From the NCBI GenBank assembly GCA_035402765.1, contig DAONDX010000002.1:1173-65172 (forward strand): 64,000 nt of DNA, read 5' to 3'. Of the stretch, positions 3,997-33,151 are shown piece after piece. Positions within the stretch are counted from its first letter, which is position 1. Every line of letters starts with the position of its first letter. A model generated the notes under the pieces. The model made no database searches. It was not told the DNA's origin and was given only the letters and a program-made list of their open reading frames with translations. The position numbers and the translations under genes are program-made. This DNA comes from Candidatus Omnitrophota bacterium. Lineage in GTDB: Bacteria > Omnitrophota > Gorgyraeia > Gygaellales > Profunditerraquicolaceae.

Positions 3997-4087
3997 GCCC
4001 CTTCCTGCCTGCCGGCAAAGCTGGCTCTCTGATTCAGCGCGTTAAACCGGAAATCTTTAAAATTTAGAAATTCAGAAGACGCATAAT
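3997..4087 (-). repeat. Intercistronic element copy, rnfB stop to purN start. 5' GCGTCTTCT is complementary to 3' AGGAAGGGGC, which is followed by ATGATG.
   Basis: Same stop-to-start architecture as the other copies; diverged sequence. Confidence 0.4.
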
Positions 4088-4876
4088 TCATTCTCTTACC
4101 ATTATCGTTTTAGCCGGGCAGACCTTTACGCATTCCTGGCAGGAAGTACATTTATGATAATCAATTACCGCCAAATTATCTACTACATGTATCGCATCAA
4201 ACTTGCAGGCCTTCTCACACAATTTACAGGCGATACAACCTACCGGACAAATACTTTTGACATCTTTACCCGGATCAGTCGAACTACAGGCCACATAAAC
4301 AGAATTAGTTATTGAAACCAGTGAAAATATTTTTTTCGGGCAGGACAAAACACATTTGTTGCAAGAACGGCACTTAATTTTATCTACTACAGGTAAGTTC
4401 TGTTCGGACATGCTAATCGCCCCGAACGGGCAGGCCTTAACACAAGTGCCAAACCCCAGGCAGGAAAAAACACAGGTTTTTTGCCCCCCTAAAACCAAAT
4501 TCGCAGTAATACAATCATGAACTCCGTCATATAAATATTTATCCTTGACCCTCGAGCCTCCGTTGCAATGCACAGTAGCAATCTTTTTATTTTGTTTGAC
4601 CAGCGCCAAACCTAAAATCTCAGCAATCTTTTCTCTGGATTCATCGCTGCATACCCGGCAATTATCTACCTGTCCTTGACCGTTAACCAAGCTTTCGGCA
4701 AAACCGAAACAACCCGGATTTCCGCAAGCCCCGCAATTTGACCCGGGCAAAAGATGCTGCACCTGGTCTAATTTCAGATTAATCGTAACGGCCAGTTTTT
4801 TTGAAGCAATCGCCAAACCGATGCCGAAGACTAAGCCTAAAATTCCTAAGATCAAAATCGCAATCAAGATTTCCAT
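4088..4876 (-). CDS. rnfB: Rnf electron-transport complex subunit B (polyferredoxin)
   Basis: N-terminal TM helix plus multiple CxxCxxCxxxCP 4Fe-4S motifs; last gene of the rnf cluster. Confidence 0.85.
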   Translation of the reverse strand: MEILIAILILGILGLVFGIGLAIASKKLAVTINLKLDQVQHLLPGSNCGACGNPGCFGFAESLVNGQGQVDNCRVCSDESREKIAEILGLALVKQNKKIATVHCNGGSRVKDKYLYDGVHDCITANLVLGGQKTCVFSCLGFGTCVKACPFGAISMSEQNLPVVDKIKCRSCNKCVLSCPKKIFSLVSITNSVYVACSSTDPGKDVKSICPVGCIACKLCEKACKFDAIHVVDNLAVIDYHKCTSCQECVKVCPAKTIMVRE

Positions 4877-4880
4877 ATGA

Positions 4881-5489
4881 TCAGAATTTAAACCCGCTAA
4901 AACCCATAAAACTTAAACTTAAGATTGAAGCAATGATAAATGCCAGAGGGAAATCGCGAACCGACTTAGGAACATTACAAAGCTCGATCCTCTCCCTGAT
5001 GCCGGACATTAACAGCATCGCCAAAGTATACCCTAATCCTACGCATACGCCCTGAAAAACAGAATAATAAAAACTTCCCGCCACGGCCTTACCATTTACA
5101 AAAAACATATCAATATTCAACACCGCTACGCCTAATACCGCGCAGTTTACGGTAATTAAAGGCAGGTAAATCCCGAAAGCACGGTACAGCTGAGGGCTTA
5201 ACTTTCTAATCACCATTTCTACGAGCTGAACAAAAGTAGCAATAACCAGAATAAAAGAAATCGTCCGCAAATAAGCCAGATTAAAAGGTAAAAGTAGAAA
5301 ACGATAAACAAACCAGGTGATGATCGATGACATGACGATCACGAACATTACCGCCGAACTCATCGCCAGGGCGGGTTTAGTTTCTTTAGAAATAGCAATA
5401 AATGAGCAGAGTCCTAAAAAACGCGAAAGGATAACGTTATAAACAAATACCGCGGAGATAAATATCGTTAAGAATTCCTGGACGTTCAC
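4881..5489 (-). CDS. rnfA: Rnf complex subunit A; GTG start
   Basis: LGLCSF motif; NqrE/RnfA-like 6-TM protein; start codon is cac on plus at 5487-5489, i.e. GTG. Confidence 0.85.
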   Translation of the reverse strand: MNVQEFLTIFISAVFVYNVILSRFLGLCSFIAISKETKPALAMSSAVMFVIVMSSIITWFVYRFLLLPFNLAYLRTISFILVIATFVQLVEMVIRKLSPQLYRAFGIYLPLITVNCAVLGVAVLNIDMFFVNGKAVAGSFYYSVFQGVCVGLGYTLAMLLMSGIRERIELCNVPKSVRDFPLAFIIASILSLSFMGFSGFKF

Positions 5490-5562
5490 CGCGCACCTTC
5501 TTTCTTACTTAATTTATCCAACCATCTGGTTTTAATATTTAAATATATAGAAGGTGCGCGAT
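5490..5562 (-). repeat. Intercistronic element copy 1 (73 nt), rnfE stop to rnfA GTG
   Basis: Minus strand: TGA atcGCGCACCTTCT-47nt-AAGAAAGAAGGTGCGCGgtg. An 11-bp inverted repeat pairs the anti-SD-like segment with the SD. Confidence 0.7.
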
Positions 5563-6156
5563 TCATGCTTTTTTATCCTTAAGTAAATTAAACAAGCCCA
5601 GTAAAAGACCGATCACTAAAAGCGCGCCCGAAGGCATGCCAAAAACAAAAATCGGTTCAAATCCTTTGATCAAAGTTACCCCAAGAATTTGACCGGAACC
5701 CAAAAACTCCCTGACCGCGGAAATAAGGATCAGCGCTAAGGTAAATCCTACACCCATGCCTAAACCATCAAAGAATGAACGCCCTAAATTATTCTTACAG
5801 GCAAATGCTTCCGCGCGGCCTAAAACAATGCAGTTAACTACGATCAGCGGGACATAAATACCTAAAGAACGATTTAACGCCGGGCTATAGGCTTTCATGC
5901 ATAACTCAATGATCGTGACAAAAGTAGCGATAATGACAATATAACATGGGATACGGATCTTGTCCGGGATAAGGTTCCGGACTAACGAAATAATTAGACT
6001 GGAGCCCAACAGCACAAAAGTAGCCGCAATGCCCATACCAATAGCATTAGCTACCGAAACGGAAACTGCCAGCGTAGGGCATAATCCTAAAACCAGAACA
6101 AAAGTAGGATTTTCCCTAATTAGACCTTTGGTAAATTCTTTAACCGAGTTTTTCAT
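5563..6156 (-). CDS. rnfE: Rnf complex subunit E
   Basis: LGLCPTLAV motif; NqrD/RnfE family. Confidence 0.85.
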   Translation of the reverse strand: MKNSVKEFTKGLIRENPTFVLVLGLCPTLAVSVSVANAIGMGIAATFVLLGSSLIISLVRNLIPDKIRIPCYIVIIATFVTIIELCMKAYSPALNRSLGIYVPLIVVNCIVLGRAEAFACKNNLGRSFFDGLGMGVGFTLALILISAVREFLGSGQILGVTLIKGFEPIFVFGMPSGALLVIGLLLGLFNLLKDKKA

Positions 6157-7094
6157 TTTACGCCATAGATCCTGTTTTTAGTAAAACGGTCGATCAGCGG
6201 GGTAGCGGCATTCATCATTAAAATAGCGTAAGAAACACCTTCGGGATACCCTCCCCAAATCCGGATCACCGCAGTAAGTAAACCGCAACCGATACCAAAA
6301 ATCAACTGGCCGCGAGCCGTTAAGGGAGTAGCCACATAATCCGTAGCCATAAAAAATGCCCCCAGGATCAGCCCGCCGCTTAAGATCTGGAATAGCCAAT
6401 CTCCGCCGAAAAACTTCTCCGCCCCGAAAATATAAGTAAAAACAGCTGTAGTAAAAATATAAGTTGCCGGAATATGCCAGGAAATATAACCTTTAATTAA
6501 AAGTATGGCCGCGCCGATCAATAAAGCCAAAATACAAACTTCACCAATACAGCCACCGTGCTTACCTAAAAACAGATCCCAATATGAAATGTGGTCTAGA
6601 ACCCTGCCTTCCTTAAGCATGGCCAGAGGAGTAGCGCTGGTTACAGCATCATAGCTAAACGGACCGGTAAAAGTAGTCATATATTTCGGCCAGGAAGCCA
6701 TCAGAAAAACTCTGCCTACCAACGCCGGATTAAAAATATTCTGGCCTAAGCCGCCAAAAATCTGTTTACCGATCGCGATAGAAAATATCGCTCCCACAAC
6801 CGGCAGCCATAGTGGAACTGTAGAAGGAAGATTAAAAGCTAACAAGATACCGGTAATTACCGCCGAGCCATCCAGAATAGTGATCTTTTTCTTAGTGAAT
6901 ATCCCAAAACAAAGTTCCGTTAACAGAGCCGCGCAGGTGGCAGCCAGGGTAACCCATAAAGCATCCAAACCGAATATAATTATCCCCGCGATTAAAGCGG
7001 GAATGAGGCTGATCACCACTGTCCACATAATCCGGGAAACGGACGCGGGTTTATGAATATGCGGTGAACCTGAAACAATAAGATTATTCATCAT
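6153..7094 (-). CDS. rnfD: Rnf complex subunit D (NqrB-like, FMN-binding membrane subunit)
   Basis: SGSPHIHKPASVSRIM, QIFGGLGQNIFNPAL, SGGLILGAFFMATD and a C-terminal GGYPEGVSYAIL...PLIDRFT match E. coli RsxD. Confidence 0.85.
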   Translation of the reverse strand: MMNNLIVSGSPHIHKPASVSRIMWTVVISLIPALIAGIIIFGLDALWVTLAATCAALLTELCFGIFTKKKITILDGSAVITGILLAFNLPSTVPLWLPVVGAIFSIAIGKQIFGGLGQNIFNPALVGRVFLMASWPKYMTTFTGPFSYDAVTSATPLAMLKEGRVLDHISYWDLFLGKHGGCIGEVCILALLIGAAILLIKGYISWHIPATYIFTTAVFTYIFGAEKFFGGDWLFQILSGGLILGAFFMATDYVATPLTARGQLIFGIGCGLLTAVIRIWGGYPEGVSYAILMMNAATPLIDRFTKNRIYGVK

Positions 7095-7614
7095 TTTTTA
7101 TTAACTCTTTTATCTCTTTTGCCTTCTGCATCACTGAATCCATGACCGCGCGGCTGGAAATGGTTGCCCCGGTGATCGCTTGAACCCCGGATAAAGTTAA
7201 ACTATCCTGTTGGCAAAACTGCTCCGTAAATTTTTTCTCGGTTACCCGCATGCCTAATCCCGGAGTCTCATTCACCGATATAATTTTTATCGCGCTAATT
7301 TTTTCATCCAGGAATATCCCGGCCAGGGTTTCAATTACGCTGGAATACCCCTTACCGCTGGCGCGGAAAACAAAACCAATCAGCTTATCCTGCCCATCAA
7401 TTGCTTTATAATATAACGTTTCATTATTAGCATCCGGTTTAACTGCGATAAATTTAGCCGCTTGCGGCATAACTTCTTTAAGTGCCGACTGCTCTTCGGA
7501 TTGAGCAGCGGCAATAATTCTAGGCCCGGTAAGCTTATTCACTGTCGCCAGAAGCCCGGCGGCAATCACACAAATCATTGCCAGAATTAAACCGTATCTG
7601 ACCATTTCTTTCAC
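7084..7614 (-). CDS. rnfG: Rnf complex subunit G (NqrC-like, covalent FMN); GTG start
   Basis: KGYSSVIETLAG, ETPGLG and the flavinylation motif ITGATISSRAV match RsxG. Confidence 0.85.
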   Translation of the reverse strand: MKEMVRYGLILAMICVIAAGLLATVNKLTGPRIIAAAQSEEQSALKEVMPQAAKFIAVKPDANNETLYYKAIDGQDKLIGFVFRASGKGYSSVIETLAGIFLDEKISAIKIISVNETPGLGMRVTEKKFTEQFCQQDSLTLSGVQAITGATISSRAVMDSVMQKAKEIKELIKNDE

Positions 7615-7687
7615 CGCGCACCTTCTTTCTGATTTAAATTACCAAACCCCGCAGACTTAATCGCCGAATATCCAGAAGACGCCTGGT
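7615..7687 (-). repeat. Intercistronic element copy 2 (73 nt), rnfC stop to rnfG GTG
   Basis: Minus strand: TGA accagGCGTCTTCTgg...AATCAGAAAGAAGGTGCGCGgtg. Confidence 0.65.
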
Positions 7688-8956
7688 TCATCTGGTTACC
7701 TCCAGCTTTGCCCTTTTAATCGTCTGTAATAATCTGCGGTTAGAAGGACAAACATAGTTGCATATGCCGCACTCGATACAATCGCTGGCACCATATTCTT
7801 TAGTTAATTTCCAAAGGGATCTTTCCGAAGCTAAATTAATTTGACAGGGCATTAACCCCACCGGACAGCCGCGCACACAGGCAGCGCAACGGATACAAGG
7901 ATCCTCATTTTGCATTTTAGCTTCATTTTTATTCATCAGCAATAAACCGCTGCTGGATTTTATAATCGGTACTTCCTGCGTATACTGGGCAATGCCCATC
8001 ATCGGTCCGCCGATAATGATCTTGGCCGGAGGTTCTTTAAGCGGCCCGCAAAACTCGATCAAATCCTTAATCGGTGTGCCTAGGCGTACAAGTAAATTTT
8101 TAGGAGAATTCAGGCAGCTGCCGGTAACAGTGACTATCCGTTCAATTAAAGGTTTGCCTTTATAAACCGCTTCATAAATCGCATAAACCGTCGCGACATT
8201 TTGCACCAGAACTCCAAGGTCAAAAGGCAGCTTACCGCGGGGAACCTCCCGGCCGAGTATATTTTTAATTAATTGTTTTTCTCCGCCTTGAGGATATTCT
8301 GCAGGAAGAACTTTAACTTTGATACCCGGAATTTCAGAAAAAACTTGAATGGCTTCAGGTTTATTCTCTTCTATTCCCATATAGATATCTTTTATGCCCA
8401 AACATCTGGCAATTAAGAATATACCTGCGGATATCTGGCTGGTCTTTTCAACCATCAAACGCGCATCGGCTGTTAAATAAGGTTCACACTCTGCGCCATT
8501 GATAATCAAAACATCCAGCGGCCGGGGCGGATTAAGTTTAATGTGCGTGGGAAAACTTGCCCCGCCCATGCCGACTATCCCGGCATCTAAAACAATCTTT
8601 TGCAGCTCTGGAAGCGTGAGCTTATCTATTTGCCGCTGATCTTTCAGGAGGTATTCTGACGGATTATCCTGCCCGTCGGCTTCAATCACCACAGCTTTGG
8701 CTCTCCCCAAAACCGGATGCGGCCAATCCTGGATTGCCACAACCTTACCCGATATTGAAGCATGAACCGGCGCGTAGAGGCGGGCGGAAATGCTGGCGAT
8801 CATTTGTCCGGAACTGACCGTATCCCCAACCTTTACTTGCGGGTTGCATAACTTACCTAAATGCTGGATTAAAGGAATATAAACTTTTACCGGCAGCGGA
8901 AAATTCTGCGTCAGCTTATTTTCCGAATAATGTTTATTCTCCGCTAATCTAACCAT
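7688..8956 (-). CDS. rnfC: Rnf complex subunit C (NADH-binding, 2x4Fe-4S)
   Basis: RnfC-N / SLBB domain; C-terminal CxxCxxCxxxCP x2. Confidence 0.85.
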   Translation of the reverse strand: MVRLAENKHYSENKLTQNFPLPVKVYIPLIQHLGKLCNPQVKVGDTVSSGQMIASISARLYAPVHASISGKVVAIQDWPHPVLGRAKAVVIEADGQDNPSEYLLKDQRQIDKLTLPELQKIVLDAGIVGMGGASFPTHIKLNPPRPLDVLIINGAECEPYLTADARLMVEKTSQISAGIFLIARCLGIKDIYMGIEENKPEAIQVFSEIPGIKVKVLPAEYPQGGEKQLIKNILGREVPRGKLPFDLGVLVQNVATVYAIYEAVYKGKPLIERIVTVTGSCLNSPKNLLVRLGTPIKDLIEFCGPLKEPPAKIIIGGPMMGIAQYTQEVPIIKSSSGLLLMNKNEAKMQNEDPCIRCAACVRGCPVGLMPCQINLASERSLWKLTKEYGASDCIECGICNYVCPSNRRLLQTIKRAKLEVTR

Positions 8957-10203: not shown

Positions 10204-10273
10204 CAGTTTGGGTTAAAATACACCAACCGCTTGTTCCAGGAAACCCGGAATAGCTGCTATTAGAAAAAATTAA

Positions 10274-10345
10274 GCCGATGAGTGGAATCGAACCACCGAC
10301 CTTGACTTTACGAAAGTCCTGCTCTACCAACTGAGCTACATCGGC
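10274..10345 (-). tRNA. tRNA-Thr (anticodon CGU); no encoded CCA
   Basis: RC reads GCCGATG-TA-GCTC-AGTTGGTA-GAGC-A-GGACT-TTCGTAA-AGTCA-AGGTC-GGTGG-TTCGATT-CCACT-CATCGGC. Cloverleaf with a 7-nt anticodon loop TTCGTAA. Confidence 0.8.
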
Positions 10346-11046: not shown

Positions 11047-11080
11047 GAAAAGACCAGTTCGCAACAGAACTGGTCTTTTC
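11047..11080. terminator. Bidirectional terminator hairpin, 14-bp perfect stem GAAAAGACCAGTTC/GAACTGGTCTTTTC, shared by the convergent cspA and 11079 genes
   Basis: Perfect inverted repeat flanked by T/A runs; overlaps the stop codon of the minus gene. Confidence 0.6.
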
Positions 11081-12554
11081 ATTTATCGAATACTTCTTTT
11101 AGAATTACATTTGCGATATTGGTAGCCAGAAGCCGGTTGCCTTTATCTGTACAATGCCCAAAATCCCCGGCAAACATATCCCTAAAATACTCCTTATAAC
11201 TGGATTGCCGGAGGGCTTCTTTAAATATTTTCTCATTATCGACAAAGATCACCCCGGTATCATTCTTGAATATTCTTTTTAACGGTTCTACATCGCGCAT
11301 CGGATACTGCATACAGACTAATTTTACCCCGCGGCGATCGAGGATTTCTTTAAGCTTGCGGTAGTTGTTAACGGTAGTAGGATTATAGAACCACAGTTTT
11401 AACTGATTGGCTTTTTTGGCATATTCTTCGGCTAAAACCGGTTTTCCTATTTGTTCAGCCAACACTGTAATCGCCTGGCAAGACCTGCTGGAATCAAAAT
11501 TTCTAGCGCCAGAATTTATGATCTGCCTGATGACCTCTTCGGCTTCCGGGAATTTACTGCAGCTTACATAAAGCCATCCTAATGCAATGTATGACTTGCT
11601 ATCCTGAGGATTTTCCGCTATAGATTTCTTAAAGGCCTCTTCGGCTTCCGGGAATTTACCTTGAGCTGCATAAACCCGCCCTAAGGTATCATAAACATAT
11701 GAACTATAGCTAGGATTAAACTCTAAGGCTTTCTTATATAAAACTTCGGCTTTTAGAAATTTGTTTCGGATTCGGTAGATATCCCCTAACCCCCAATAAG
11801 CCTTGCCGTTTTTAGGATTTAATGCTATGGCTTTATTGAGTAAATCTTCCGCCTGGGAATATTCACCCTCTCTGCGTAAAAACCGGCTTAAATCAATATA
11901 ATTTTGATCATTTTTAGGATTTAATGCCATAGTTTTTTTAAAAAGCTCCGGGCTTAAAACAGGCTCCATACCGCCTTCAGTCTTAATTTGGGAAAGCCCC
12001 TCCAAAAAACAGCTATCTTCCTGAGGCTGATAAAAACCTGCTTCTTTAGCCTTGGCCAAGATATGTAAACCAATAAACCGGATTAATTTATAAGTTTTTA
12101 AGGACCTGATCAAAAGCAGCCCCTTAGAAGTAGTGGCTGCTTCAAAAGGGATATGCTCTCCCCGGTCATTAACCCCCATCATCGCCACGACCATGTCCGG
12201 CTGGACCAAAACCAGATTAGATTCAAGTTGGCTTATTATAGTGGGAGTAACCATGCCTCCTCTGCCTTTATCAATGACGCTAAATTTTATTCCGATATTG
12301 CGTTGATTTAAGATTGCTTCAAGAAACCGGGGATATTCTCCCTGGGTAGTAGATTCTCCTAAGCAAAGGATCCGGTAGGCGTCTTTTTGTTTTAAAGATT
12401 GAGAATTTCTGAATTCCTGCGCCGATAATAAAATAAACCCGCCCAAGCGCAGGCCGATCTCTAAAAGTACAAAAAATAGAAATAACCCGAATAATACCAG
12501 GCCGATTTTTTGCTTAAAAAGTAACTTTGGCTGCGAAGGCTTGTTTTGCTGCAT
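11079..12554 (-). CDS. Membrane-anchored SGNH/GDSL-like hydrolase with a TPR-repeat insertion, paralog 1
   Basis: N-terminal TM helix; block I CLGESTT, block III GVND; central TPR repeats; C-terminal block V DFGHCTDKG. Confidence 0.55.
   Translation of the reverse strand: MQQNKPSQPKLLFKQKIGLVLFGLFLFFVLLEIGLRLGGFILLSAQEFRNSQSLKQKDAYRILCLGESTTQGEYPRFLEAILNQRNIGIKFSVIDKGRGGMVTPTIISQLESNLVLVQPDMVVAMMGVNDRGEHIPFEAATTSKGLLLIRSLKTYKLIRFIGLHILAKAKEAGFYQPQEDSCFLEGLSQIKTEGGMEPVLSPELFKKTMALNPKNDQNYIDLSRFLRREGEYSQAEDLLNKAIALNPKNGKAYWGLGDIYRIRNKFLKAEVLYKKALEFNPSYSSYVYDTLGRVYAAQGKFPEAEEAFKKSIAENPQDSKSYIALGWLYVSCSKFPEAEEVIRQIINSGARNFDSSRSCQAITVLAEQIGKPVLAEEYAKKANQLKLWFYNPTTVNNYRKLKEILDRRGVKLVCMQYPMRDVEPLKRIFKNDTGVIFVDNEKIFKEALRQSSYKEYFRDMFAGDFGHCTDKGNRLLATNIANVILKEVFDK
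11084..11402 (-). repeat. ~315-bp segment near-identical (>=99%) to 12587..12905, encoding the identical C-terminal 108 aa of both paralogs
   Basis: Direct nucleotide comparison; the rest of the two genes is ~75-80% identical. Confidence 0.85.
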
Positions 12555-12577: not shown

Positions 12578-14026
12578 TTATTTATCAAATACTTCTTTTA
12601 GAATTACATTTGCGATATTGGTAGCCAGAAGCCGGTTGCCTTTATCTGTACAATGCCCAAAATCCCCGGCAAACATATCCCTAAAATACTCCTTATAACT
12701 GGATTGCCGGAGGGCTTCTTTAAATATTTTCTCATTATCGACAAAGATCACCCCGGTATCATTCTTGAATATTCTTTTTAACGGTTCTACATCGCGCATC
12801 GGATACTGCATACAGACTAATTTTACCCCGCGGCGATCGAGGATTTCTTTAAGCTTGCGGTAGTTGTTAACGGTAGTAGGATTATAAAACCACAGTTTTA
12901 GCTGACGAACGATGTCTGTATATTCTTGCGCTGATTTATCTTGATTGGTTTTTTCGGACAATGCCAGAATTGCCCTATAAGCATTATCATTTTGGGGATC
13001 TATCTCTACGGCTTTTTTAAATAAAGCTTCGGCTTGCGGGAGTTTGCCTTGGTTTACATAAAGCCATCCCAGTTTAAAATAGACATAGTTGTTCTGCGGA
13101 TTTAATTCCAGGGCTTGCTTAAGCAAAGCTTCGGCTTGCGGGAGTTTGCCTTGATACATATAATTCCATCCTAATTCGCTATAAGCATTATCATTCCTGG
13201 GATTTATTTCTAAGGTTTTCTTGAATAAATCTTCAGCTTGAGGAAATTTATGCTGATCCCGCAAAAGCCGGCCCAGCTCAAAACAGGCATCATCATTGTT
13301 AGGATTCAATTCCATGGCTTTTTTGAATAGATCTTCAGCTTCCGGGAATTTACCCTGATCCCGCAAAAGCCGGCCCAATCTCACATAAGCATTATCCTCT
13401 TGAGGATTAAGTTTTATAATTCTATCCAGCGTCTTTGCGGCTTGTTCAGGGTCTATCTTTGGATCAGGCGGCAAAACATTTCCCTGGGGAATTTTATTTT
13501 TTAATCCGGTGGCCGGTGGATTTTTAAATTTCTGAACAATATGCATATACACAAGCCGCATAAACCTATATGTCCGGCAATGCCGGAATATTCCTGCAGC
13601 CGCTTCAGGAATATCTTGATAATAACTAATTCCCGCATCGTTACCACCAGCCATTATAATTACCATATCCGGCTTATAGCTTTTCAGATTTTGCTCTAAA
13701 TTCAAAAGTATAGCCGTGGTATTGGTCCCGATAACACCTTTATCAATTACGCTGAATTTTATCCCGGTATTGCGCTGGTTTAAGATCTCTTCCAAAGCCC
13801 CGGGGAACTGCCCGGCAGTAGTAGATTCCCCTAAACAAAGGATCCGGTAGCTGTCTTTCTGTTTTATGGACTGCAAATTTCTATGTTCTTGCACGGAGAT
13901 AAAAATAAATCCGCCCAGGCGCAGGCCGATCTCCAGGAGCATAAAACACAAAAATAGCCCGTATAATACCAGGGCTATTTTTTTATTAAAAAGTATTTTT
14001 GGTTTTAACAACCTGTTTTCCCGCAT
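12578..14026 (-). CDS. Membrane-anchored SGNH/GDSL-like hydrolase with a TPR-repeat insertion, paralog 2
   Basis: Same architecture as 11079..12554; the TPR array differs in length and sequence. Confidence 0.55.
   Translation of the reverse strand: MRENRLLKPKILFNKKIALVLYGLFLCFMLLEIGLRLGGFIFISVQEHRNLQSIKQKDSYRILCLGESTTAGQFPGALEEILNQRNTGIKFSVIDKGVIGTNTTAILLNLEQNLKSYKPDMVIIMAGGNDAGISYYQDIPEAAAGIFRHCRTYRFMRLVYMHIVQKFKNPPATGLKNKIPQGNVLPPDPKIDPEQAAKTLDRIIKLNPQEDNAYVRLGRLLRDQGKFPEAEDLFKKAMELNPNNDDACFELGRLLRDQHKFPQAEDLFKKTLEINPRNDNAYSELGWNYMYQGKLPQAEALLKQALELNPQNNYVYFKLGWLYVNQGKLPQAEALFKKAVEIDPQNDNAYRAILALSEKTNQDKSAQEYTDIVRQLKLWFYNPTTVNNYRKLKEILDRRGVKLVCMQYPMRDVEPLKRIFKNDTGVIFVDNEKIFKEALRQSSYKEYFRDMFAGDFGHCTDKGNRLLATNIANVILKEVFDK
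12587..12905 (-). repeat. Partner of the 11084..11402 identical segment
   Basis: See above. Confidence 0.85.
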
Positions 14027-14066: not shown

Positions 14067-14138
14067 TGCCGAGAGAGGGAATCGGACCCCCCACGCCGGC
14101 CTTTTCAGGGCCGCGCTCTACCACTGAGCTATCTCGGC
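14067..14138 (-). tRNA. tRNA-Phe (anticodon GAA); no encoded CCA
   Basis: RC reads GCCGAGA-TA-GCTC-AGTGGTA-GAGC-G-CGGCC-CTGAAAA-GGCCG-...-TCTCGGC-A. Confidence 0.8.
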
Positions 14139-15894: not shown

Positions 15895-16128
15895 CTACAT
15901 GGCTTTAAGGGCTTCCTGAATCAACGGTAAGATGCCTTCAGCTTCTTCCTTAAGCAGACGGCCGAGCTTTGCGAAAGCATACTCGCCATTCCTGTCTTTC
16001 ACTTCTCTGACGATTTGAATCTTTTTAACACCCTGGTTATAGGAATAAACACTAACCACGATCTTACCGGAATCATTCTCCCAAAAACGCGTAAATACCT
16101 GTGTGTCTAAACTGCTGTCGTACGGCAT
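15895..16128 (-). CDS. Small (77 aa) protein, possibly a PC4/YdbC-like ssDNA-binding fold. The true start is probably the internal ATG at ~16126-16128 rather than 16293.
   Basis: A strong SD, GAGGAGGT, lies 5 nt upstream of that ATG. The upstream in-frame codons cover a conserved non-coding motif. The segment IVVSVYSYNQGVKKIQIVREV...GEYAFAKLGRL resembles the PC4 C-terminal domain, which is weak evidence. Confidence 0.4.
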   Translation of the reverse strand: MPYDSSLDTQVFTRFWENDSGKIVVSVYSYNQGVKKIQIVREVKDRNGEYAFAKLGRLLKEEAEGILPLIQEALKAM

Positions 16129-16143
16129 TGTGACCTCCTCGTG

Positions 16144-16197
16144 CATGAACACGACACCGGCGCAATTCAAATAAGCGCCGGGTGTAGTATTCCTTAG
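16144..16197 (-). ncRNA. Conserved ~55-nt leader motif, copy 1 (minus-strand sense AGGAATACtaCACCCGGCgCTTATttGAAttGCGCCGGTGTCGTGTTCaTgC). Predicted hairpin immediately 5' of the SD of the PC4-like gene.
   Basis: About 85% identical to 34208..34257. The conservation is out of frame relative to the overlapping annotated ORFs. Confidence 0.5.
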
Positions 16198-16246
16198 TTT
16201 ACAAACATAACATTCGCGTAATATCAAATAATGCGGGTATTTTCCT

Positions 16247-16555
16247 TTAAAACTTTTTCCCGTGCCGGTAAGGCCGGGTTTTATTATACTCAATTTTCTT
16301 GAGCAGCGCTTTTTGCAAATCTATCTTACGCGAACCGCAATAATCAAATATTCGGATGCAGCAATCAGCCAGCTCCTCGGCTAACGCATCGTTCCCGGCG
16401 TGATTGCGCAATGCTTCCAAGGCTTCAGAGAGCTCTGAATGCATTAAAGCAATCAATTCTCCGTCGTTACGAAGATCCTCCCACCACCCTTTGCTCTGCG
16501 CAACCTGATGACATTCTTTAATCAGATCCTTAACTGCCGGATTCTTCTTTAACAT
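16247..16555 (-). CDS. MazG-like nucleoside triphosphate pyrophosphohydrolase domain protein (~102 aa; start probably the internal Met)
   Basis: ELIALMHSELSEALEALRNH...EELADCCIRIF, EExxE/D motifs of the all-alpha MazG/HisE fold. Confidence 0.5.
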   Translation of the reverse strand: MLKKNPAVKDLIKECHQVAQSKGWWEDLRNDGELIALMHSELSEALEALRNHAGNDALAEELADCCIRIFDYCGSRKIDLQKALLKKIEYNKTRPYRHGKKF

Positions 16556-16994
16556 TAGTTTTCCTCTCAATTTTTGGATTAAGCACTTCATCAATTCCAG
16601 CAAATATCCGTTTGGCGATCTCCTCTTTAGCGTAAATACTCGGACTGGATATTTCAATCAGCGTGCTTCCCGCCGCCTCCTCGGTAAAGAATATTCCTAC
16701 CGGAGTAGTATCAGCCGGCGTAAAATAAATAGCAATTAATTTTTCTTTAGGGTCAAGCGCGTAAATAAATGACTCTTTACCGCTTTGATTCAAAATCTCT
16801 TTAACTTTCAAATAGCAGCGGTCATAATCTAAGGCAAAAGATTTCTTCAGGGCAGTTTTACGATTTTCTTCTAAGACTTGCGTAGACACCCCGATAAAAC
16901 CCTTTCCTGCTTCTTTAACTGCGGCGCAACCTGACAATAAAACAATTAAAACATAATAAATCACCGTTAAAGCAAAAAATCCCTTTCTTTTCAT
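16530..16994 (-). CDS. Hypothetical lipoprotein (signal MKRKGFFALTVIYYVLIVLLSGC)
   Basis: Lipobox; no domain recognised. Confidence 0.45.
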   Translation of the reverse strand: MKRKGFFALTVIYYVLIVLLSGCAAVKEAGKGFIGVSTQVLEENRKTALKKSFALDYDRCYLKVKEILNQSGKESFIYALDPKEKLIAIYFTPADTTPVGIFFTEEAAGSTLIEISSPSIYAKEEIAKRIFAGIDEVLNPKIERKTNVKEESGS

Positions 16995-17083
16995 ATTCCT
17001 CCTCTTTTTCTTTGGGCCTCTTAAGTAATCAAATAACGCCGGCTTAAAAAATCCTCCGGGGTAAAACATTATTTAAGTTTTTA

Positions 17084-20413: not shown

Positions 20414-20860
20414 CTATCGTTTAGTCGGCTCAACTGATGCGATGGAATACCTGCTCATCACTTCCCAGGTTTTCGGACCAACTTTACCATCAACTTTTAA
20501 ATTATTTGCCTTCTGAAAATCTTCGATTGCCTTTTTGCTCTTCGGGCCGATCTTCCCGTCAATATTACCCGCATAGAAACCGGCGTTCTTTAAAGCCGTC
20601 TGAATCTCAATACCTGTAGGCTTATAAGGGCCTTGGGGCGGCAAAGGTAATACTTCCTTAGCCGGAGCAATTGCGCTACCGGTAGTTAAAATTTTAGTTT
20701 CCGGAGCCTTTAAATCCGGGGCAGCTTGAATAGGCCCACCCACCGCGCTTAAAGATTCCATGGTAATCGGCTGTAACTCCTCCATTTCCTGCTTTTTACT
20801 GCAACCCGACAATGCCACCAAAGTCAAAAATACTATTCCTAAACTTAATAACCTCTTCAT
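20414..20860 (-). CDS. Lipoprotein with a C-terminal peptidoglycan-binding (PG_binding_1-like) domain; start probably MKRLLSLGIVFLTLVALSGC
   Basis: Lipobox; ALKNAGFYAGNIDGKIGPKSKKAIEDFQKANNLKVDGKVGPKTWEVM. Confidence 0.55.
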   Translation of the reverse strand: MKRLLSLGIVFLTLVALSGCSKKQEMEELQPITMESLSAVGGPIQAAPDLKAPETKILTTGSAIAPAKEVLPLPPQGPYKPTGIEIQTALKNAGFYAGNIDGKIGPKSKKAIEDFQKANNLKVDGKVGPKTWEVMSRYSIASVEPTKR

Positions 20861-20940
20861 GCCCATCTCCTCTCTATATAATTTATTAAACCGATTATTA
20901 TGACGTTTAATTATTTTTAATTGCCGGTATCTGTTCACCT

Positions 20941-20961
20941 CCCTGCCTGCCGGCCGGCAGG
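20941..20961. repeat. GC-rich perfect palindrome CCTGCCTGCCGGCCGGCAGGC between two minus-strand genes
   Basis: Seen directly. The T-run orientation does not match the minus-strand genes, so the function is unclear. Confidence 0.3.
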
Positions 20962-24488: not shown

Positions 24489-25118
24489 TTAAGATTGATG
24501 GTCATCAAGAAACTTCTGCATATCCGCAGGCAAAGGAGACTGGATTACCATTACCTTTGCGGTTTGCGGATGTTTAAATTCTAAATATTTGGCGTGCAGG
24601 CAAAGACGCTTGGCCCGCAAAGTAAAATCTTTGCGGAAAGCAAATTTATCTTCGCCCACCAAAGGATGCTGGATATGTTTAAAATGGATGCGTATCTGGT
24701 TCGTCCTGCCGGTAACCGGGGAAACTTCGACCACGCTGTAATTGCTTCTTTCCTGAATAACCCGGTATTTAGTCAGGGCGTTTTTTCCTTCAATTGCCCA
24801 GTTAATCACCCCTTGTGGCTGCGGAAATTTTCCATGCACAAAAGCAATATATTGTTTACTCACCAATCTATCCCTAAAAGCGCCGGCCAGCTTTTCCTCA
24901 ATGCTTCTGCTTTTAGCATAAATCAAAAGTCCCGAGGTTTCCCGGTCCAGGCGGTGGCAAGGGTAGAGATGATATTCTAAACCGCGCTCACGGGCATCCT
25001 GATTTAAAATGCTGGTCAGGGTACGCGCCTCATGTTTGGGGGTAGGAACACTTAACAAGCCCGCCGGCTTATCCACGATTAACAGCCAATCATCTTCAAA
25101 AATAATCGGAATATTCAC
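24489..25118 (-). CDS. RluA-family pseudouridine synthase; GTG start
   Basis: HRLDRETSGLLIYAKS catalytic-Asp motif. Confidence 0.8.
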   Translation of the reverse strand: MNIPIIFEDDWLLIVDKPAGLLSVPTPKHEARTLTSILNQDARERGLEYHLYPCHRLDRETSGLLIYAKSRSIEEKLAGAFRDRLVSKQYIAFVHGKFPQPQGVINWAIEGKNALTKYRVIQERSNYSVVEVSPVTGRTNQIRIHFKHIQHPLVGEDKFAFRKDFTLRAKRLCLHAKYLEFKHPQTAKVMVIQSPLPADMQKFLDDHQS

Positions 25119-25193
25119 CCCGTACCTTCTTTCTTAATTCGATCTATAAACCGTATGACTTTAATATTTTGTATTTAGAAGGTGCGGAGTTCA
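25119..25193 (-). repeat. Intercistronic element copy 3 (75 nt), nadA stop to rluA-like GTG
   Basis: Minus strand: TGA actCCGCACCTTCT...GGTTTATAGATCGAATTAAGAAAGAAGGTACGGGgtg. Confidence 0.7.
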
Positions 25194-26120
25194 TCACACA
25201 ATCTTGAGCATGCGGTCAATCGCCAGGCGCGCTTTTTTCCTAATTTCATCAGAAACCCTGACTTCTTCCTTAAGTTCTTCTAAGGCCCAAAGTACTTTTT
25301 CCTGCGTCGTACGTTTCATATTCGGGCACACCGCACGTTCGCTGGCTAAATAAAATTCCTTACTCGGGTTATCCTGTTTAAGCCGATAGATCAACCCGGA
25401 CTCCGTACCGACAATAAATTCTTTGGTTGGATCTTCTTTAACAATTTTGCCCATCTGGCTGGTAGAAAGCACCAGATCAGCTTGCGCCACAACCGCAGCC
25501 AGGCATTCCGGATGCACCATAACCTTGGCTTGAGGATGGAATTTTTTCTCCCGCTTTAAATCTTCAGGCAATATTTTAACATGAGTAGGACAAAACCCAT
25601 GCCAAGTGATTAGTTTTCTACCGGTCTTTTTGGAAACATAATCCGCCAGGTATTTATCCGGGACAAAAATTATTTCTTTCTCATTTTTTAGCGCGTTAAT
25701 GATCGCCACCGCATTAGTAGAAGTACAGCAATAATCAAGTTCAGCTTTAACTGCCGCCGAAGTATTTACATAACCCACCGCCACAGCACCGGGATGTTCT
25801 TGTTTAAGCTTCTTTAAATCATCAGCGCTCAGCATATTCGCCATCGGGCAACCCGCGGAAGCATCCGGCATAAGCACTAATTTATCCGGAGAAAGGATGG
25901 AAGCGGTCTCCGCCATAAAATAGACTCCGCAAAAAACAATTACTTTGGCGTCAGTCTTAGCGGCAATCCGGGAAAGCTCCAAAGAATCTCCGCGAAAATC
26001 CGCGATGTCCTGCACCTCCGGCAATTGATAGTTATGCGCCAGAATAATGGCATTATGTTTCTTTTTTAGTTCTTTAATTCCAGAAACTATTTTCTTATCT
26101 TCCTTGATCATTTTAATCAA
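25194..26120 (-). CDS. nadA: Quinolinate synthase
   Basis: NadA family; three-domain repeat; conserved Cys. Confidence 0.85.
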   Translation of the reverse strand: MIKMIKEDKKIVSGIKELKKKHNAIILAHNYQLPEVQDIADFRGDSLELSRIAAKTDAKVIVFCGVYFMAETASILSPDKLVLMPDASAGCPMANMLSADDLKKLKQEHPGAVAVGYVNTSAAVKAELDYCCTSTNAVAIINALKNEKEIIFVPDKYLADYVSKKTGRKLITWHGFCPTHVKILPEDLKREKKFHPQAKVMVHPECLAAVVAQADLVLSTSQMGKIVKEDPTKEFIVGTESGLIYRLKQDNPSKEFYLASERAVCPNMKRTTQEKVLWALEELKEEVRVSDEIRKKARLAIDRMLKIV

Positions 26121-29777: not shown

Positions 29778-29783
29778 AAGACA

Positions 29784-29811: not shown

Positions 29812-29835
29812 CTAATAATATAACAATGGTTTACA

Positions 29836-30792
29836 TTACCGGCAGGTCGTCACATCACCGCTGGAAATTCTTTGCATCAAACCGGAATCTTTACGGATCA
29901 GTAAAGCACCATCCTGATCGATATCAACAGCCTGGCCTTCGATATGTTTATTCTGATAACAAACCTTAACCCGCGTGCCTAAGGTTTGCGTAAAATTACG
30001 CCACTTATTAATAATTTCCTGGCTCCCCTTATTCTCCAGGATGAAATAATTACTTTCTATCTTGCGTAAAAGCTCCTGCAATATCGTTACCCGGTTAAGA
30101 TCCTGGTCTTGGGATTCTTTCAATGAAGTCGCCTGCGGGATTAATGATTTTTTATCATTGTTAACATTTAAACCAATTCCGATTACCACAAAATTAACTT
30201 TATCCACTTCGGCATTCATTTCCGTTAAGATTCCGGCAATCTTCTTACCCCGCATCAATACATCATTAGGCCACTTGATTTGCGCATCCTCTCCGGTGGT
30301 TTCTTTTACCGCTTCACAAATACTCACCGCGCTCATTAAGGTTAAGATCGGGCAAGCATTGGGAAGAATCCGGGGCCTTAAAATCAACGACAGGTAAATT
30401 CCTTTATATTTAGGCGAAAACCATTCCCGGCCTAATCTGCCGCGGCCTTTAATTTGTGATTCCGCCAATACCAGTGTCCCATTGACGGCCCCCGCCATGC
30501 CTAGCTGCATAGCCTGATCCATGGTAGAAGCTAAATAATCAAAATAATGGATCTTGCGGCCGATAAATTTTGCATTCAGGTTGCGGGAGACTTCAAAAAC
30601 AAAAAGCCGGTCCGGACAAGCTTCAAGGCGATAACCTAAATGCGGGACCGCTACGATTTCATAACCGGAATCCTTTAACTCCTGGATGTGCTTCCATAGA
30701 CCCTGGCGGGTGATCCCGAGATGCTTACTAATCTGATCTCCGGAAAGATAATCATGTTTTTTACTTAAATATTCCAGTATTTTTTCTTTCAC
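29836..30792 (-). CDS. birA: Bifunctional biotin-protein ligase / biotin-operon repressor; GTG start
   Basis: N-terminal HTH ISKHLGITRQGLWKHIQEL; BPL catalytic domain with GRGRLGREW. Confidence 0.8.
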   Translation of the reverse strand: MKEKILEYLSKKHDYLSGDQISKHLGITRQGLWKHIQELKDSGYEIVAVPHLGYRLEACPDRLFVFEVSRNLNAKFIGRKIHYFDYLASTMDQAMQLGMAGAVNGTLVLAESQIKGRGRLGREWFSPKYKGIYLSLILRPRILPNACPILTLMSAVSICEAVKETTGEDAQIKWPNDVLMRGKKIAGILTEMNAEVDKVNFVVIGIGLNVNNDKKSLIPQATSLKESQDQDLNRVTILQELLRKIESNYFILENKGSQEIINKWRNFTQTLGTRVKVCYQNKHIEGQAVDIDQDGALLIRKDSGLMQRISSGDVTTCR

Positions 30793-30880
30793 CCCGCACC
30801 TTCTTTTATTGAATACATTAAAACCATTGATTTAAAAGTGAACGATTAAGAAGGTGCGGGGTTCATCCCACACCTTCTGC
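30793..30880 (-). repeat. Intercistronic element copy 4 (88 nt) with a double hairpin
   Basis: Minus strand: TAA gcAGAAGGTGTGGGatgaaCCCCGCACCTTCT-...-AAAAGAAGGTGCGGGGtg. The anti-SD segment can pair with either flanking SD-like segment. Confidence 0.7.
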
Positions 30881-31927
30881 TTAAGCTGACCTCTTCTTAA
30901 GATACTCTTCAAATTTACCCCAGAAGGGGTCAATCCTGGGATGTTTAAGTTTATAATTTCTATTCCCGTCTAAAACCCGCATACCTTTGGAGTAATCTGT
31001 TACCTGACCGACAACACTAGCCGCAATACCCGCATCTTCCAGGCCGGCGACAATGGCTTTGGCTTTTTTCTTATCGGCAGTAGCCAAAAGGGTGCCTTCA
31101 CTAATTGATTTATAGGGATCGATATCAAAACACTCACAGGTCAGCTTGACGGCTTCCTGCAGAACTATTTTCTGTAAGTCAATGCACATGCCTACCCGGC
31201 TGTGCTGGGCGATTTCAAAAAGCCCGCCCCAGACTCCGCATTCAGTAGCATCATGCATCGCGGTCACTCCGCCGATTCTGGAAGCGATCTGCGCATCCCG
31301 GACGGTAGACATTTGGTAAAAAACATTTTGAGCCCGCTTAACAAAAGATTTTCCGTAGCGGGCTTCTAAAAATTCCGGAAAATAAGCGCTCATTAAACCC
31401 GTTGTTTCGATCGCCGGCCCCTTGGAAATGATAATCGCATCCCCTATCCTGGCCTGAGGATTGACCAAGTCTTTCTTCCGGCCTAAACCCAGCATTGTTG
31501 CTCCGCCGACCATCGGATAATTACATCCGGCATAACGGGCAGTATGTCCGGTAACCACGCTGATCTTTAACTTCCGGCATTCCCGGTGCACCGCATCCCA
31601 AGCCCCGGCCAATTCTTTTTCAGTCATTTCCGGAGGAAGATTCAAATCTACCGCTAAATATTTCGGGGCGATGCCGCTGACTGCTACATCACTGGCCAGG
31701 ATATGTACCGCAAACCAAGCCGCCTTTTCTAATCCTAATTCCCGGGCAAAGTAAAAAGGATCGGTCGAGAGCACCATTACTTTACGGCCTAAATCCACTA
31801 CCCCGAAATCTACCCCATTTTGCGGGCCCACGATAACCGACCGGTCAGGTGAACCTAATTTACGATAAATGTGCTGATTAAAAAAATTCGGATGGACTTT
31901 GCCTAATTTAGGCAGATTATTTTTCAT
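30881..31927 (-). CDS. PurM/AIR-synthase-related superfamily protein (HypE/ThiL-like); precise family unresolved
   Basis: N-terminal GxDxGV-type motif (NGVDFGVVDLG) and the PurM-like C-domain pattern. Confidence 0.45.
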   Translation of the reverse strand: MKNNLPKLGKVHPNFFNQHIYRKLGSPDRSVIVGPQNGVDFGVVDLGRKVMVLSTDPFYFARELGLEKAAWFAVHILASDVAVSGIAPKYLAVDLNLPPEMTEKELAGAWDAVHRECRKLKISVVTGHTARYAGCNYPMVGGATMLGLGRKKDLVNPQARIGDAIIISKGPAIETTGLMSAYFPEFLEARYGKSFVKRAQNVFYQMSTVRDAQIASRIGGVTAMHDATECGVWGGLFEIAQHSRVGMCIDLQKIVLQEAVKLTCECFDIDPYKSISEGTLLATADKKKAKAIVAGLEDAGIAASVVGQVTDYSKGMRVLDGNRNYKLKHPRIDPFWGKFEEYLKKRSA

Positions 31928-33077
31928 AAAGAGGTGACATCGCGCGTAATTTTTTTACCACCGGGGGCAATTTTTCCAGAAGATAATCTATGTCGGTTTC
32001 CTTAGTCCAACGCCCTAAAGTAATTCTCAATGACCCATGCGCTGTGGCATGATCTAAACCGATCGCCAATAAAACATGCGAAGGTTCAAGAGAGCTGGAG
32101 GTACAGGCTGAACCGGTAGAACAGGCGATCCCCAGCATATCCAGGCTTAAAAGCATTGACTCCCCTTCGATGTATCTAATGGAAAAATTCACGTTATTGG
32201 GTAATCTCTGAGTCGGATGTCCGTTAAGCCGGACTTCCGGGATCCTGGCGGGGATCTCCTTGATTAACCTGTCCCGCAGCGCGCTCTGAAACTTAATTTC
32301 ATCCTGCATCTTACTCCGGCAAAGTTCGACCGCTTTAGCTAATCCCACAATGCCGGTAGTATTATGCGTAGAAGCCCGCCTTCCCTTTTCCTGATCTCCG
32401 CCGCGCATAAACGTTTCAAGCCGCGTTCCTTTTCTGACATACAAAGCTCCCACCCCTTTGGGAGCGTAAAATTTATGGCCCGAAAGCGATAAAAGATCGA
32501 CGTTCAGCTCATCAACATTGATCGGAATATGCCCCATAGTCTGCACGGCATCCGTATGGAATAAAATTCCTTTATCACCGGCCAGCCGGCCTAATTGCGC
32601 GATCGGCTGCAGTGTTCCGATCTCATTATTCGCCTGCATAATGCTGATTAAAATAGTTTTATCAGTAATTGCTTTCTTTAAATCATCCGGAGAAACTAAC
32701 CCGTCTTTGTCTACGCCCAGATAAGTAATTTTAAAACCTTTCTTTTCCAAAAATTCCGCCGGCTGGCTGATGGCATGATGTTCAATAGCCGAAGTTATAA
32801 TGTGATTCCCCTTCTTCTCTAAAGCATAAGCGGCGCCTAAAAGAGCGTAATTATCGGATTCTGTGCCGCCGGAGGTAAAAACAATCTCTTCAGGTTTTGC
32901 CCCGATAAAATCCGCCAATGTTTGACGGCTATCCTCTAAAGCTCCTTTGGCCTCCTGGCCATAGGCGTGCAAACTTGAAGCGTTGCCAAATTTCTCAAAG
33001 AAATACGGCTCCATAGCCCTGATCACTTCCGGGTCAGTAGGAGTAGTTGCCGCATAATCTAAATACACTTTTTTCAC
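31917..33077 (-). CDS. iscS: Cysteine desulfurase (NifS/IscS class V aminotransferase); GTG start
   Basis: SGHKFYAPKGVGALYV PLP-Lys region; C-terminal Cys loop SACTS. Confidence 0.85.
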   Translation of the reverse strand: MKKVYLDYAATTPTDPEVIRAMEPYFFEKFGNASSLHAYGQEAKGALEDSRQTLADFIGAKPEEIVFTSGGTESDNYALLGAAYALEKKGNHIITSAIEHHAISQPAEFLEKKGFKITYLGVDKDGLVSPDDLKKAITDKTILISIMQANNEIGTLQPIAQLGRLAGDKGILFHTDAVQTMGHIPINVDELNVDLLSLSGHKFYAPKGVGALYVRKGTRLETFMRGGDQEKGRRASTHNTTGIVGLAKAVELCRSKMQDEIKFQSALRDRLIKEIPARIPEVRLNGHPTQRLPNNVNFSIRYIEGESMLLSLDMLGIACSTGSACTSSSLEPSHVLLAIGLDHATAHGSLRITLGRWTKETDIDYLLEKLPPVVKKLRAMSPLYEK

Positions 33078-33151
33078 GCCACACCTTCTTTCTTAATTCA
33101 ATCTATAAACCTACGGCTTCCAATCTTAATCTTTGTAAGATACCTGGGCGG
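33078..33151 (-). repeat. Intercistronic element copy 5 (74 nt)
   Basis: Minus strand: TGA ...GGTTTATAGATTGAATTAAGAAAGAAGGTGTGGCgtg. The 3' ~36 nt is almost identical to copy 3. Confidence 0.65.

Follow-up and report, generated by a model that had tools for sequence, protein, structure and literature searches.

Short inverted-repeat elements with a 4-nt target-site duplication occupy start codons in Candidatus Omnitrophota

We describe a family of short inverted-repeat elements found in a 64,000-nucleotide stretch of a metagenome-assembled Candidatus Omnitrophota genome (contig DAONDX010000002.1 of assembly GCA_035402765.1; this whole stretch is referred to as the window). The elements are mobile DNA: they are bordered by a 4-nt duplication, sit at start codons, and restore the stop codon, the Shine-Dalgarno (SD) sequence and the start codon of the genes between which they lie. 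We consider it likely that each copy is a non-autonomous MITE (miniature inverted-repeat transposable element) of ~73 nt that duplicates 4 nt, usually TGAA, that the surviving insertions lie almost always in ATGAA start codons, and that a translational relay makes them near-neutral. Terminal inverted repeats, a target-site duplication that co-varies between its two halves, multiple copies, and orthologous sites in both empty and filled form occur together here, which is the standard evidence for MITEs (PMC3184786); the elements are also small and devoid of a transposase gene. The copies look like tolerated parasites rather than evolved control switches.

The original prediction placed six copies (c1–c6; Table 1) on the minus strand, where they fill gaps between co-directional open reading frames (ORFs). 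All six were checked and lie there, with GTG as the start codon at five copies and ATG at purN (c1), and with gaps of 73, 73, 75 and 74 nt at c2, c3, c4 and c6. The proposal that the elements span the distance from stop to start holds as far as the gap is indeed filled, but the true element limits are shifted relative to it: the TGA at which the upstream gene stops and the TG within the new start codon both come from the duplicated TGAA. The exact stop-to-start fit arises because insertion with a 4-nt duplication goes into ATGA(A) stop/start overlaps. A common 3' block was likewise confirmed in five of the six copies but not in c1, where a nested 21-nt palindrome (4004-4024) breaks it up and accounts for both the extra length and the missing 3' motif. 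Allowing up to 3 mismatches, the 15-nt motif AGAAGGTGCGCGGTG occurs 9 times in the window against 0.89 expected, a number reached by 0 of 100 shuffles, and it is not the generic SD context, as other window genes have canonical GGAGG-type sites. An nhmmer profile built from c2–c6 picked up c1, which was not part of its input (E = 8.5e-6), and the 64-kb window yielded no additional copy. At c5, the 88-nt gap comprises a 70-nt element and a 13-nt solo 3' arm, which we interpret as left over from a previous copy after its regenerated ATGAA was hit a second time.

To cover other genomes, we scanned one genome per species for the arm pair CGCACCTTCT-N35-65-AGAAGGTGCG, which gave at least 116 stretches, ~95 of them family members by profile or flanks; the copy counts below rest on the matches listed. 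Aligned copies read A-TGAA-YCCCGCACCTTCT-interior-AGAAGGTGCGGGR-TGAA, where 13-nt terminal inverted repeats (5'-YCCCGCACCTTCT ... AGAAGGTGCGGGR-3') enclose an AT-rich interior of 38-75 nt. The element is 64-101 nt long (mode 73) and has no transposase gene inside. Its arms co-vary at the outermost pair, which is C-G 12 times and T-A 6 times out of 23. The 4-mers flanking the arms (YCCCGC...GCGGGR) are identical in 62 of 85 listed copies, and where the left flank is other than TGAA the right flank is usually altered likewise: nine of the 62 identical pairs are TGAG, TGGA, TTGA, TTAA or TTCA (permutation p < 5e-5). A generic search for TGAA-flanked inverted repeats in all collected DNA yielded only this family and its sister families (starting with YCCCG or CCCAG).

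The reconstructed target is A-TGAA, with A at -1 in 54 of the 62 copies and a purine-rich upstream side, which amounts to a start codon followed by AA. From the rebuilt codon, an ORF of at least 60 codons runs in 69 of 84 listed copies (GTG 51, ATG 24, TTG 3), and an upstream ORF ends no more than 14 nt from the arm in 54 of the 84, most often at the TGA of the left repeat. The last base of the element, G in 'C-type' and A in 'T-type' copies, joins the right-hand TG to give GTG or ATG in the original frame. Together with the A-rich bases before it, the right arm (AAGAAAGAAGGTG) forms an SD-like sequence 6 nt before the new start; with AAGAAAG in front, it sets GAAGG 6 nt upstream of the rebuilt codon. 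The canonical 16S rRNA tail ends ...CACCUCCUUUCU, so AGAAAGAAGGUG is one base off its perfect complement. The earlier proposal that the element itself carries the SD and start codon is thereby upheld. The old ATG and its native SD (e.g. GGAGGTAACCAG-ATG before c3) are kept and now read into the element. Since the element regenerates its own target, repeat hits are expected, and they are seen as the arm remnant before c5 and as similar left flanks in seven other loci (flanks like that of c5 at L020, L104, L111, L073, L031 and L011; L-numbers label loci compared with the window); tandem copies occur at L095.

Filled and empty sites were compared at rnfE/rnfA, rnfC/rnfG, rnfB/purN, rnfD/rnfE, birA and rluA. 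Among 74 orthologous rnfE/rnfA junctions read, 9 are occupied (including other families and remnants), while ~60 are empty and have the form '...aaggataaaagagcATGAACATTCAA', in which the stop of rnfE and the start of rnfA overlap; the window junction is exactly this empty site plus the element plus a second TGAA. For rnfC/rnfG, 3 of 46 orthologous junctions are occupied (empty form '...gaggtaatcaaATGAAAGAAATG'), and for rnfB/purN ~8 of ~66. An Omnitrophica metagenome-assembled genome (MAG) contig that is syntenic with part of the window at ~75% DNA identity (L066) has an empty birA start, reading 'AAAAAGAAATGAAAGAGAAAATAC' / AAGAAATGAAAGAG..., where the window has c5, and L024 reads ATGAATATCCC at the rluA start, lacking this element, where the window has c4. 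The rnfD/rnfE junction shows the opposite pattern, being empty in the window (...GGCGTAAAATGAAAAACTCG; rnfD stop TGA 6155-6153 overlapping rnfE start ATG 6156-6154) and filled in L122 (97% RnfA identity) and L152. L122 also holds a better-preserved copy at rnfB/purN, the junction of c1, and L066 an intact copy (1723-1802) at the junction orthologous to c6.

The family was found in at least 37 MAGs, 28 of which are labelled Candidatus Omnitrophota/Omnitrophica and 9 Planctomycetia, Phycisphaerae or Sedimentisphaerales (Planctomycetota; taxonomic labels as deposited). It is multicopy, with six copies in the window and up to 9 strict-arm loci per MAG among the matches listed, in keeping with the initial view of a dispersed repeat family of the ERIC/REP/MITE type. 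Two NCBI assemblies and additional ENA/Logan contigs contain the same rnfA protein accompanied by the same three elements. Among loci selected solely for encoding a close RnfA relative (616 kb), the profile finds 11 copies; calibrated on the window's 64 kb, where it re-finds 4 of the 6 copies, this points to a lineage-dependent density. Regarding phage carriage, three matches fell in viral contigs, all of them unrelated chance matches without family flanks. Arm-pair matches in Brevibacterium, Promineofilum, Nocardia and others were rejected as different repeats or chance. Brevibacterium salitolerans (L023, L036, L046) and Candidatus Promineofilum glycogenicum (L026, L029, L058, L114) carry unrelated genome-specific palindromic repeats with the 10-mers CGCACCTTCT/AGAAGGTGCG in common (e.g. 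TTTCGCACCTTCTGACGGTGTGCGCATG...CACACCGTCAGAAGGTGCGAAA), without TGAA flanks and AT-rich interior.

Table 1. Element copies and associated features of the window. Genes flanking the copies were identified with Pfam; all features lie on the minus strand.
Feature	Span	Strand	Upstream gene	Downstream gene	Old ATG	Left TGAA	Element	Right TGAA	New start	Remark
c1	3989..4091	-	rnfB	purN	4091-4089	4090-4087 (holds rnfB stop)	4086-3993 (94 nt, decayed)	3992-3989	ATGATG 3996-3991	
c2	5485..5566	-	rnfE	rnfA	5566-5564	5565-5562 (holds rnfE stop TGA 5565-5563)	5561-5489 (73 nt)	5488-5485	GTG 5489-5487	
c3	7610..7691	-	rnfC	rnfG	7691-7689	7690-7687 (holds rnfC stop)	7686-7614 (73 nt)	7613-7610	GTG 7614-7612	old ATG follows native SD GGAGGT + 6 nt
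c4	25114..25194	-	nadA	RluA-type pseudouridine synthase	25194-25192	25193-25190	25189-25118 (72 nt, one base short)	25117-25114	GTG 25118-25116	old ATG has 1-nt overlap with nadA stop (TGATG)
c5	30788..30866	-	AIR-synthase-like gene	birA	30866-30864	30865-30862	30861-30792 (70 nt)	30791-30788	GTG 30792-30790	
c6	33073..33155	-	PP-loop ATPase-like gene	class-V aminotransferase (cysteine desulfurase type)	33155-33153	33154-33151 (decayed to TGAC)	~33151-33077 (5' arm decayed)	33076-33073	GTG 33077-33075	
c2 micro-ORF MNRAPSIYLNIKTRWLDKLSKKEGAR	5486..5566	-	rnfE	rnfA						26 codons; stop TGA 5488-5486 overlaps new GTG (GTGA)
c3 micro-ORF MNQASSGYSAIKSAGFGNLNQKEGAR	7611..7691	-	rnfC	rnfG						26 codons; GTGA overlap with rnfG start
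Nested palindrome CCAGCTTTGCCGGCAGGCAGG	4004..4024	-								within c1, between AAAG and AAGG of the SD block
Solo 3' arm AGAAGGTGTGGGA	30866..30878	-								immediately 5' of c5 old ATG
Unoccupied target ATGAA	6152..6156	-	rnfD	rnfE						

Each element had also been predicted to fold into a hairpin that sequesters the SD. Intact copies can indeed form a 13-14-bp stem burying it. Folding is clearly more stable than that of shuffled sequences in c2 (-32.2 kcal/mol, z = -7.9), c5 (-29.9 kcal/mol, z = -3.6) and c4 (-18.3 kcal/mol, z = -2.6), but not in c1, c3 and c6 (z = -0.2 to -0.6). The 5' arm of c3 reads GCGTCTTCT, and its pairing includes two G.U pairs. The consensus structure is the 14-bp terminal stem alone; the interior of c2 is paired in its minimum free energy (MFE) fold, yet no interior pairing is conserved across copies. 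Perfect-armed copies, a set selected for this property, have a median MFE of -31.7 kcal/mol compared to -11.7 when shuffled, and their SD-bearing 3' arm is paired in 84 of 85 cases, which is true by construction of the set.

A stem that occludes the SD and start in intact copies is what one would expect of a host-selected cis-regulatory RNA, in which the hairpin serves as a coupler or switch tuning subunit ratios in operons such as rnf. Further features agree with such a role: the strongly biased orientation of the interior, an enrichment at gene starts above the simple neutral expectation, the two alternative partners of the c5 5' arm (the solo arm at 30866-30878 can pair with it in an alternative short hairpin), and the 3' halves of c6 and its L066 counterpart, which are identical over ~29 nt although the flanking genes share only ~75% identity. 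We nevertheless regard this explanation as unlikely. Most orthologous junctions lack the element and work with a plain ATGA overlap, occupancy varies even between close relatives, and families with other arms occupy the same sites. Moreover, a strand-asymmetry test on the 16 imperfect copies gave no signal of RNA-level selection on the stem, as G.U-type and A.C-type arm mismatches stand at 15:15 and substitutions in the 5' and 3' arms at 18 versus 22. Given these observations and the loss of a stable fold in three of the six window copies, the notion of domesticated intercistronic control elements was not sustained. Compensatory change between the arms, which had been suggested as a test of RNA function, cannot separate such function from transposon-end symmetry, because terminal inverted repeats give covariation anyway. 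A faster decay of 5' arms was considered and dropped; it rests only on c1, c6 and L122 and lacks statistical support.

Membership of a known Rfam RNA family was rejected for want of a covariance-model match: a search of the window at the gathering threshold returned only two tRNA genes (minus strand, 10273-10345 and 14067-14138), and an E-value search of 3900-7800 gave chance-level matches only (E ~0.7).

Reading from the old ATG, a micro-ORF traverses several copies. In addition to c2 and c3, it is open in c1, where it has 32 codons and a stop TGA (3995-3993) in an ATGA overlap, while in c4, c5 and c6 it stops after 16, 6 and 9 codons; that of c4 is frameshifted because the element is one base short. 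Of 53 canonical copies, 36 are in frame and 24 fully open, so that 67% of the in-frame copies (24/36) are open, compared to 13% with shuffled loops. This excess, together with residues that recur across copies, might suggest a small protein gene family encoding a functional peptide of ~26 residues (MNPAPSxYxxIKxxxFxxLxxKEGAG) that is co-translated with its neighbours. We find this highly improbable. As a control, the reverse complement of the element is equally open (25/36), which we attribute to its largely palindromic nature, and the 'conserved residues' at the N- and C-termini are the inverted repeats. Variation in the micro-ORF carries no codon-position signal (entropy 1.02, 1.00 and 1.02 at positions 1, 2 and 3; p = 0.46), and among spacings other than 78 nt, multiples of three occur at about chance level (22/56, hand tally). 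A conserved small protein gene was therefore rejected, as conservation does not depend on codon position and the frame is not maintained. If the ORF matters at all, any role would be exerted through its being translated, not through its product.

How the downstream genes would still be expressed is best explained by translational coupling, which had been proposed at the outset and which we consider the likeliest route. Wherever stop and start overlapped, the left TGAA retains the upstream stop. At the RNA level, pairing of the arms (about -30 kcal/mol) would hide the new SD and start in a stem and block direct binding of the 30S subunit. Some twelve nucleotides downstream of the P site are covered and unwound by a ribosome; one that ends the upstream gene, or that starts at the old ATG 2 nt before the stem, would enter the 5' arm and open the hairpin. 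A micro-ORF of 24-32 codons would then, in roughly half of all copies, be translated up to the GTGA/ATGA overlap, followed by re-initiation at the new start, whereas in the others translation would terminate inside the loop while the SD is exposed. Either way, the downstream gene would stay coupled to its original initiation signals, making the insertion nearly neutral. The two proposed ribosome routes match the two accepted models of translational coupling, RNA unfolding and re-initiation (PMC12548453).

Several points weigh against the combination of MITE and near-neutral relay. The relay is deduced from sequence; the reading frame is lost in about one-third of copies and the ORF truncated in half, leaving roughly half of the micro-ORFs truncated or out of frame. 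The large copy set, being chosen for perfect 10-nt arms, is no measure of arm conservation. In 1.6 Mb of collected loci and in the window, we found no autonomous element or transposase with these termini; the search covered arm pairs 150-4000 nt apart, whose ends were inspected, all-against-all BLAST for segments of at least 400 bp, and Pfam on 40 window ORFs. Furthermore, 82% of copies lie at gene starts, compared to a rough neutral estimate of ~30% (random insertion with purifying selection, assuming that any TGAA outside coding sequence is equally tolerated), so that targeting or occasional benefit may also contribute. Finally, the orientation of the interior relative to the asymmetric TGAA is constant in at least 55 of 63 copies, with only L015 clearly reversed, and a single orientation is not produced by a DDE transposase acting on symmetric terminal inverted repeats alone. 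This bias may reflect selection, since the sense orientation puts AAGAAAG beside AAGGTG and lengthens the SD, or an orientation-specific insertion mechanism.

A more far-reaching reading, which we put forward only tentatively, builds on two sister families that share the layout but not the arms. The first has YCCCGTTAGAG...CTCTAACGGGR arms (ATGAAT-CCCGTTAGAG...CTAACGGG...GAGGTCTCTAACGGG-ATGAA), the second reads CCCCGCCYTTCCT...AGGAAAGCGGG...GGAAGAGCGGGG-TGAA. Despite their different arms, they have the same termini (YCCCG), duplication, internal SD and start-regenerating last base, and they occupy the very same insertion sites, namely the rnfE/rnfA and rnfB/purN junctions at L175/L176/L178/L184, as well as L130 and L167. 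That the layout and sites recur makes chance a less apt explanation than a design fitted to start codons. It is conceivable that a superfamily of start-codon-homing mini-transposons is spread across Omnitrophota and neighbouring PVC (Planctomycetes-Verrucomicrobia-Chlamydiae) lineages and works as a portable bicistronic adaptor, with either an enzyme that recognises A-TGAA start DNA, preceded by a purine-rich stretch, in a fixed orientation or some copies (as in rnf) co-opted for hairpin-gated coupling. If so, its members would differ in their arms but have in common the YCCCG termini, the duplicated TGAA, an SD inside the element and a last base that regenerates the start, and the adaptor would lead from the old start through the micro-ORF to a -4 overlap with the new SD and start. 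As to a possible parent, GAAGGTGCG is presumably found also in 16S helix 45 and in the ends of IS5, where its orientation towards the terminus is reversed, and IS1380-family elements reportedly have CC ends and 4-5-bp duplications; neither lead is relied on here.

Short palindromic, high-copy extragenic repeats between co-directional genes could also be repetitive extragenic palindromic (REP) sequences or REPINs, spread by a REP-associated tyrosine transposase (RAYT) of the HUH type, or integron attC sites. The 4-nt duplication that co-varies between the flanks argues against REP/REPINs, for which we know of no reported target duplications, and the element ends read TGAA-YCCCGC without the GTAG/CGTC tag that marks the 20-40-nt REP palindromes. 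The ends also lack the R''/R' boxes (RYYYAAC...GTTRRRY) of attC, and the flanking core operon genes keep the same order in empty and filled relatives, unlike cassettes. Pfam searches of the window's ORFs revealed neither a RAYT nor an integrase. Both classes were rejected on these defining features, and there is very little chance that either applies.

Other small palindromes accompany the elements. The palindrome nested in c1 has counterparts in L145 and L132 that are nested at the identical point, and it belongs to a second short palindromic repeat, CCTGCC(TG)CCGGCAGGCAGG, seen at 4004-4024 and 20942-20961 of the window and in L132, L145 (two sites), L063, L181 and L196. At 20942-20961 it stands alone, a few nucleotides upstream of a peptidoglycan-binding-domain gene that starts with GTG (20414-20938). 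The repeat resembles a further small mobile palindrome that has an insertion preference of its own. In L137, the rnfB/purN element (6601-6749) is interrupted by a GC-rich hairpin, GGGGAGGAGTTCTCTTAAAAAAAAGAGAACCGTCCCC, a nesting of unrelated small palindromes. At the rnfE/rnfA junction of the same locus (~5090-5125), only the 3' arm of the element is left, fused in frame to the end of rnfE (...KGKKEGTG*) with a stop that overlaps the rnfA GTG; an internal deletion has made element sequence a C-terminal extension of a host protein.

Further repeats in the window include a 52-nt segment present three times at 67-83% identity (16135-16186, 34200-34251 and 63156-63207), of which two copies lie inside ORFs of ~130 aa (15895-16293 and 33971-34351) that are probably paralogous small genes. 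Two adjacent paralogous TPR/GDSL-lipase-like genes (11079-12554 and 12578-14026) have 300-nt 5' ends that are 98% identical and show an internal tandem periodicity of 102 nt (34-aa TPR). Past the low-coordinate end of the window, L001 contains seven small called genes (16500-19600; 46-149 aa) without a Pfam match, adjoining enolase/DivIC.

The MITE interpretation accounts for the sequence pattern and needs no new regulatory system to do so. It also illustrates how mobile DNA can spread inside essential operons and leave them intact, by duplicating part of the start codon, regenerating the start and bringing its own ribosome-binding site. For annotation, many of the GTG starts and of the 73-nt 'intergenic gaps' that Omnitrophota MAGs show are best viewed as insertion scars, and 26-codon ORFs in such gaps should not be called genes. 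The element also provides a natural test bed for the RNA-unfolding and re-initiation models of translational coupling, and polymorphic insertion sites could serve as strain markers.

Among known systems, the closest analogue is the mycobacterial interspersed repetitive unit (MIRU), by analogy and not by family membership. MIRUs, reportedly described by Supply et al. in 1997, belong to a different phylum (Mycobacterium as opposed to Omnitrophota/Planctomycetota), and we know of no sequence relationship to them. They are 40-100 bp long, lie within operons at sites found empty or filled, and have tetranucleotide direct repeats and imperfect inverted repeats (PMC3184786). Like the present elements, they are apparently mobile and insert at start codons between genes of one operon. 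MIRUs contain a small ORF that overlaps the adjacent stop and start codons (-4 spacing), an arrangement considered to render the insertion harmless (PMC12548453, PMC3184786). In our data, all six window copies have ends that overlap the neighbouring stop and start, and 69 of 84 copies elsewhere abut a downstream ORF start; an internal ORF coupled at -4 is intact in c1–c3 and in 24 of 53 canonical copies, and truncated or out of frame in the rest. In contrast to MIRUs, the inverted repeats here are long, terminal, near-perfect and contain the SD, so that the ribosome-binding site would be buried by the transcript itself, and no more than about half of the copies have an intact micro-ORF. Tandem (variable number tandem repeat) arrays are typical of MIRUs, whereas tandem arrangements are rare here (L095 and the c5 remnant). 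If confirmed, the family would be a second, independent case of start-codon-inserting repeats, from an uncultured phylum, and one in which, in addition, a hairpin of the inverted repeats would enclose the new ribosome-binding site. Within the literature searched, we found nothing that links Omnitrophota with such repeats.

Bacterial MITEs such as Correia/NEMIS, ERIC, RUP, Nezha and Chunjie (PMC3184786, PMC10969869) resemble the family in being shorter than 200 bp and free of a transposase gene, in their terminal inverted repeats, target-site duplication and many copies, in empty and filled orthologous sites, and in the stable RNA stem-loops they form when co-transcribed. The present family differs in its start-codon target (A-TGAA), in rebuilding the start and bringing along an SD, and in its strong interior orientation bias, and its parent insertion sequence was not found here. 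The terms 'start codon', 'ribosome binding', 'Shine-Dalgarno' and 'MIRU' are all absent from a 2024 review of MITEs in prokaryotes. In Neisseria REP2 (PMC3184786), the inverted repeats are internal, not terminal, the repeat brings a promoter along with 5'-UTR-like sequence, and no micro-ORF relay is described there. REP/REPINs with RAYTs (PMC3116915, PMC2817692) are similar as short, palindromic, high-copy extragenic repeats with a hairpin-forming doublet architecture. They differ in the features given above, namely the co-varying 4-nt duplication, the tag and the nearby RAYT, and lie mostly downstream of genes, whereas this family lies at gene starts.

With regard to function, hairpin-gated coupling by RNA unfolding, as in f1 VII/IX, MS2 and rpmI-rplT, likewise involves a stem-locked SD and start that is opened by an upstream ribosome, and synthetic bicistronic designs use a short leader ORF with a -4 overlap to deliver ribosomes to the next gene (PMC12548453). 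Those arrangements are fixed, locus-specific or engineered, whereas the one predicted here would be portable and arrive by transposition.

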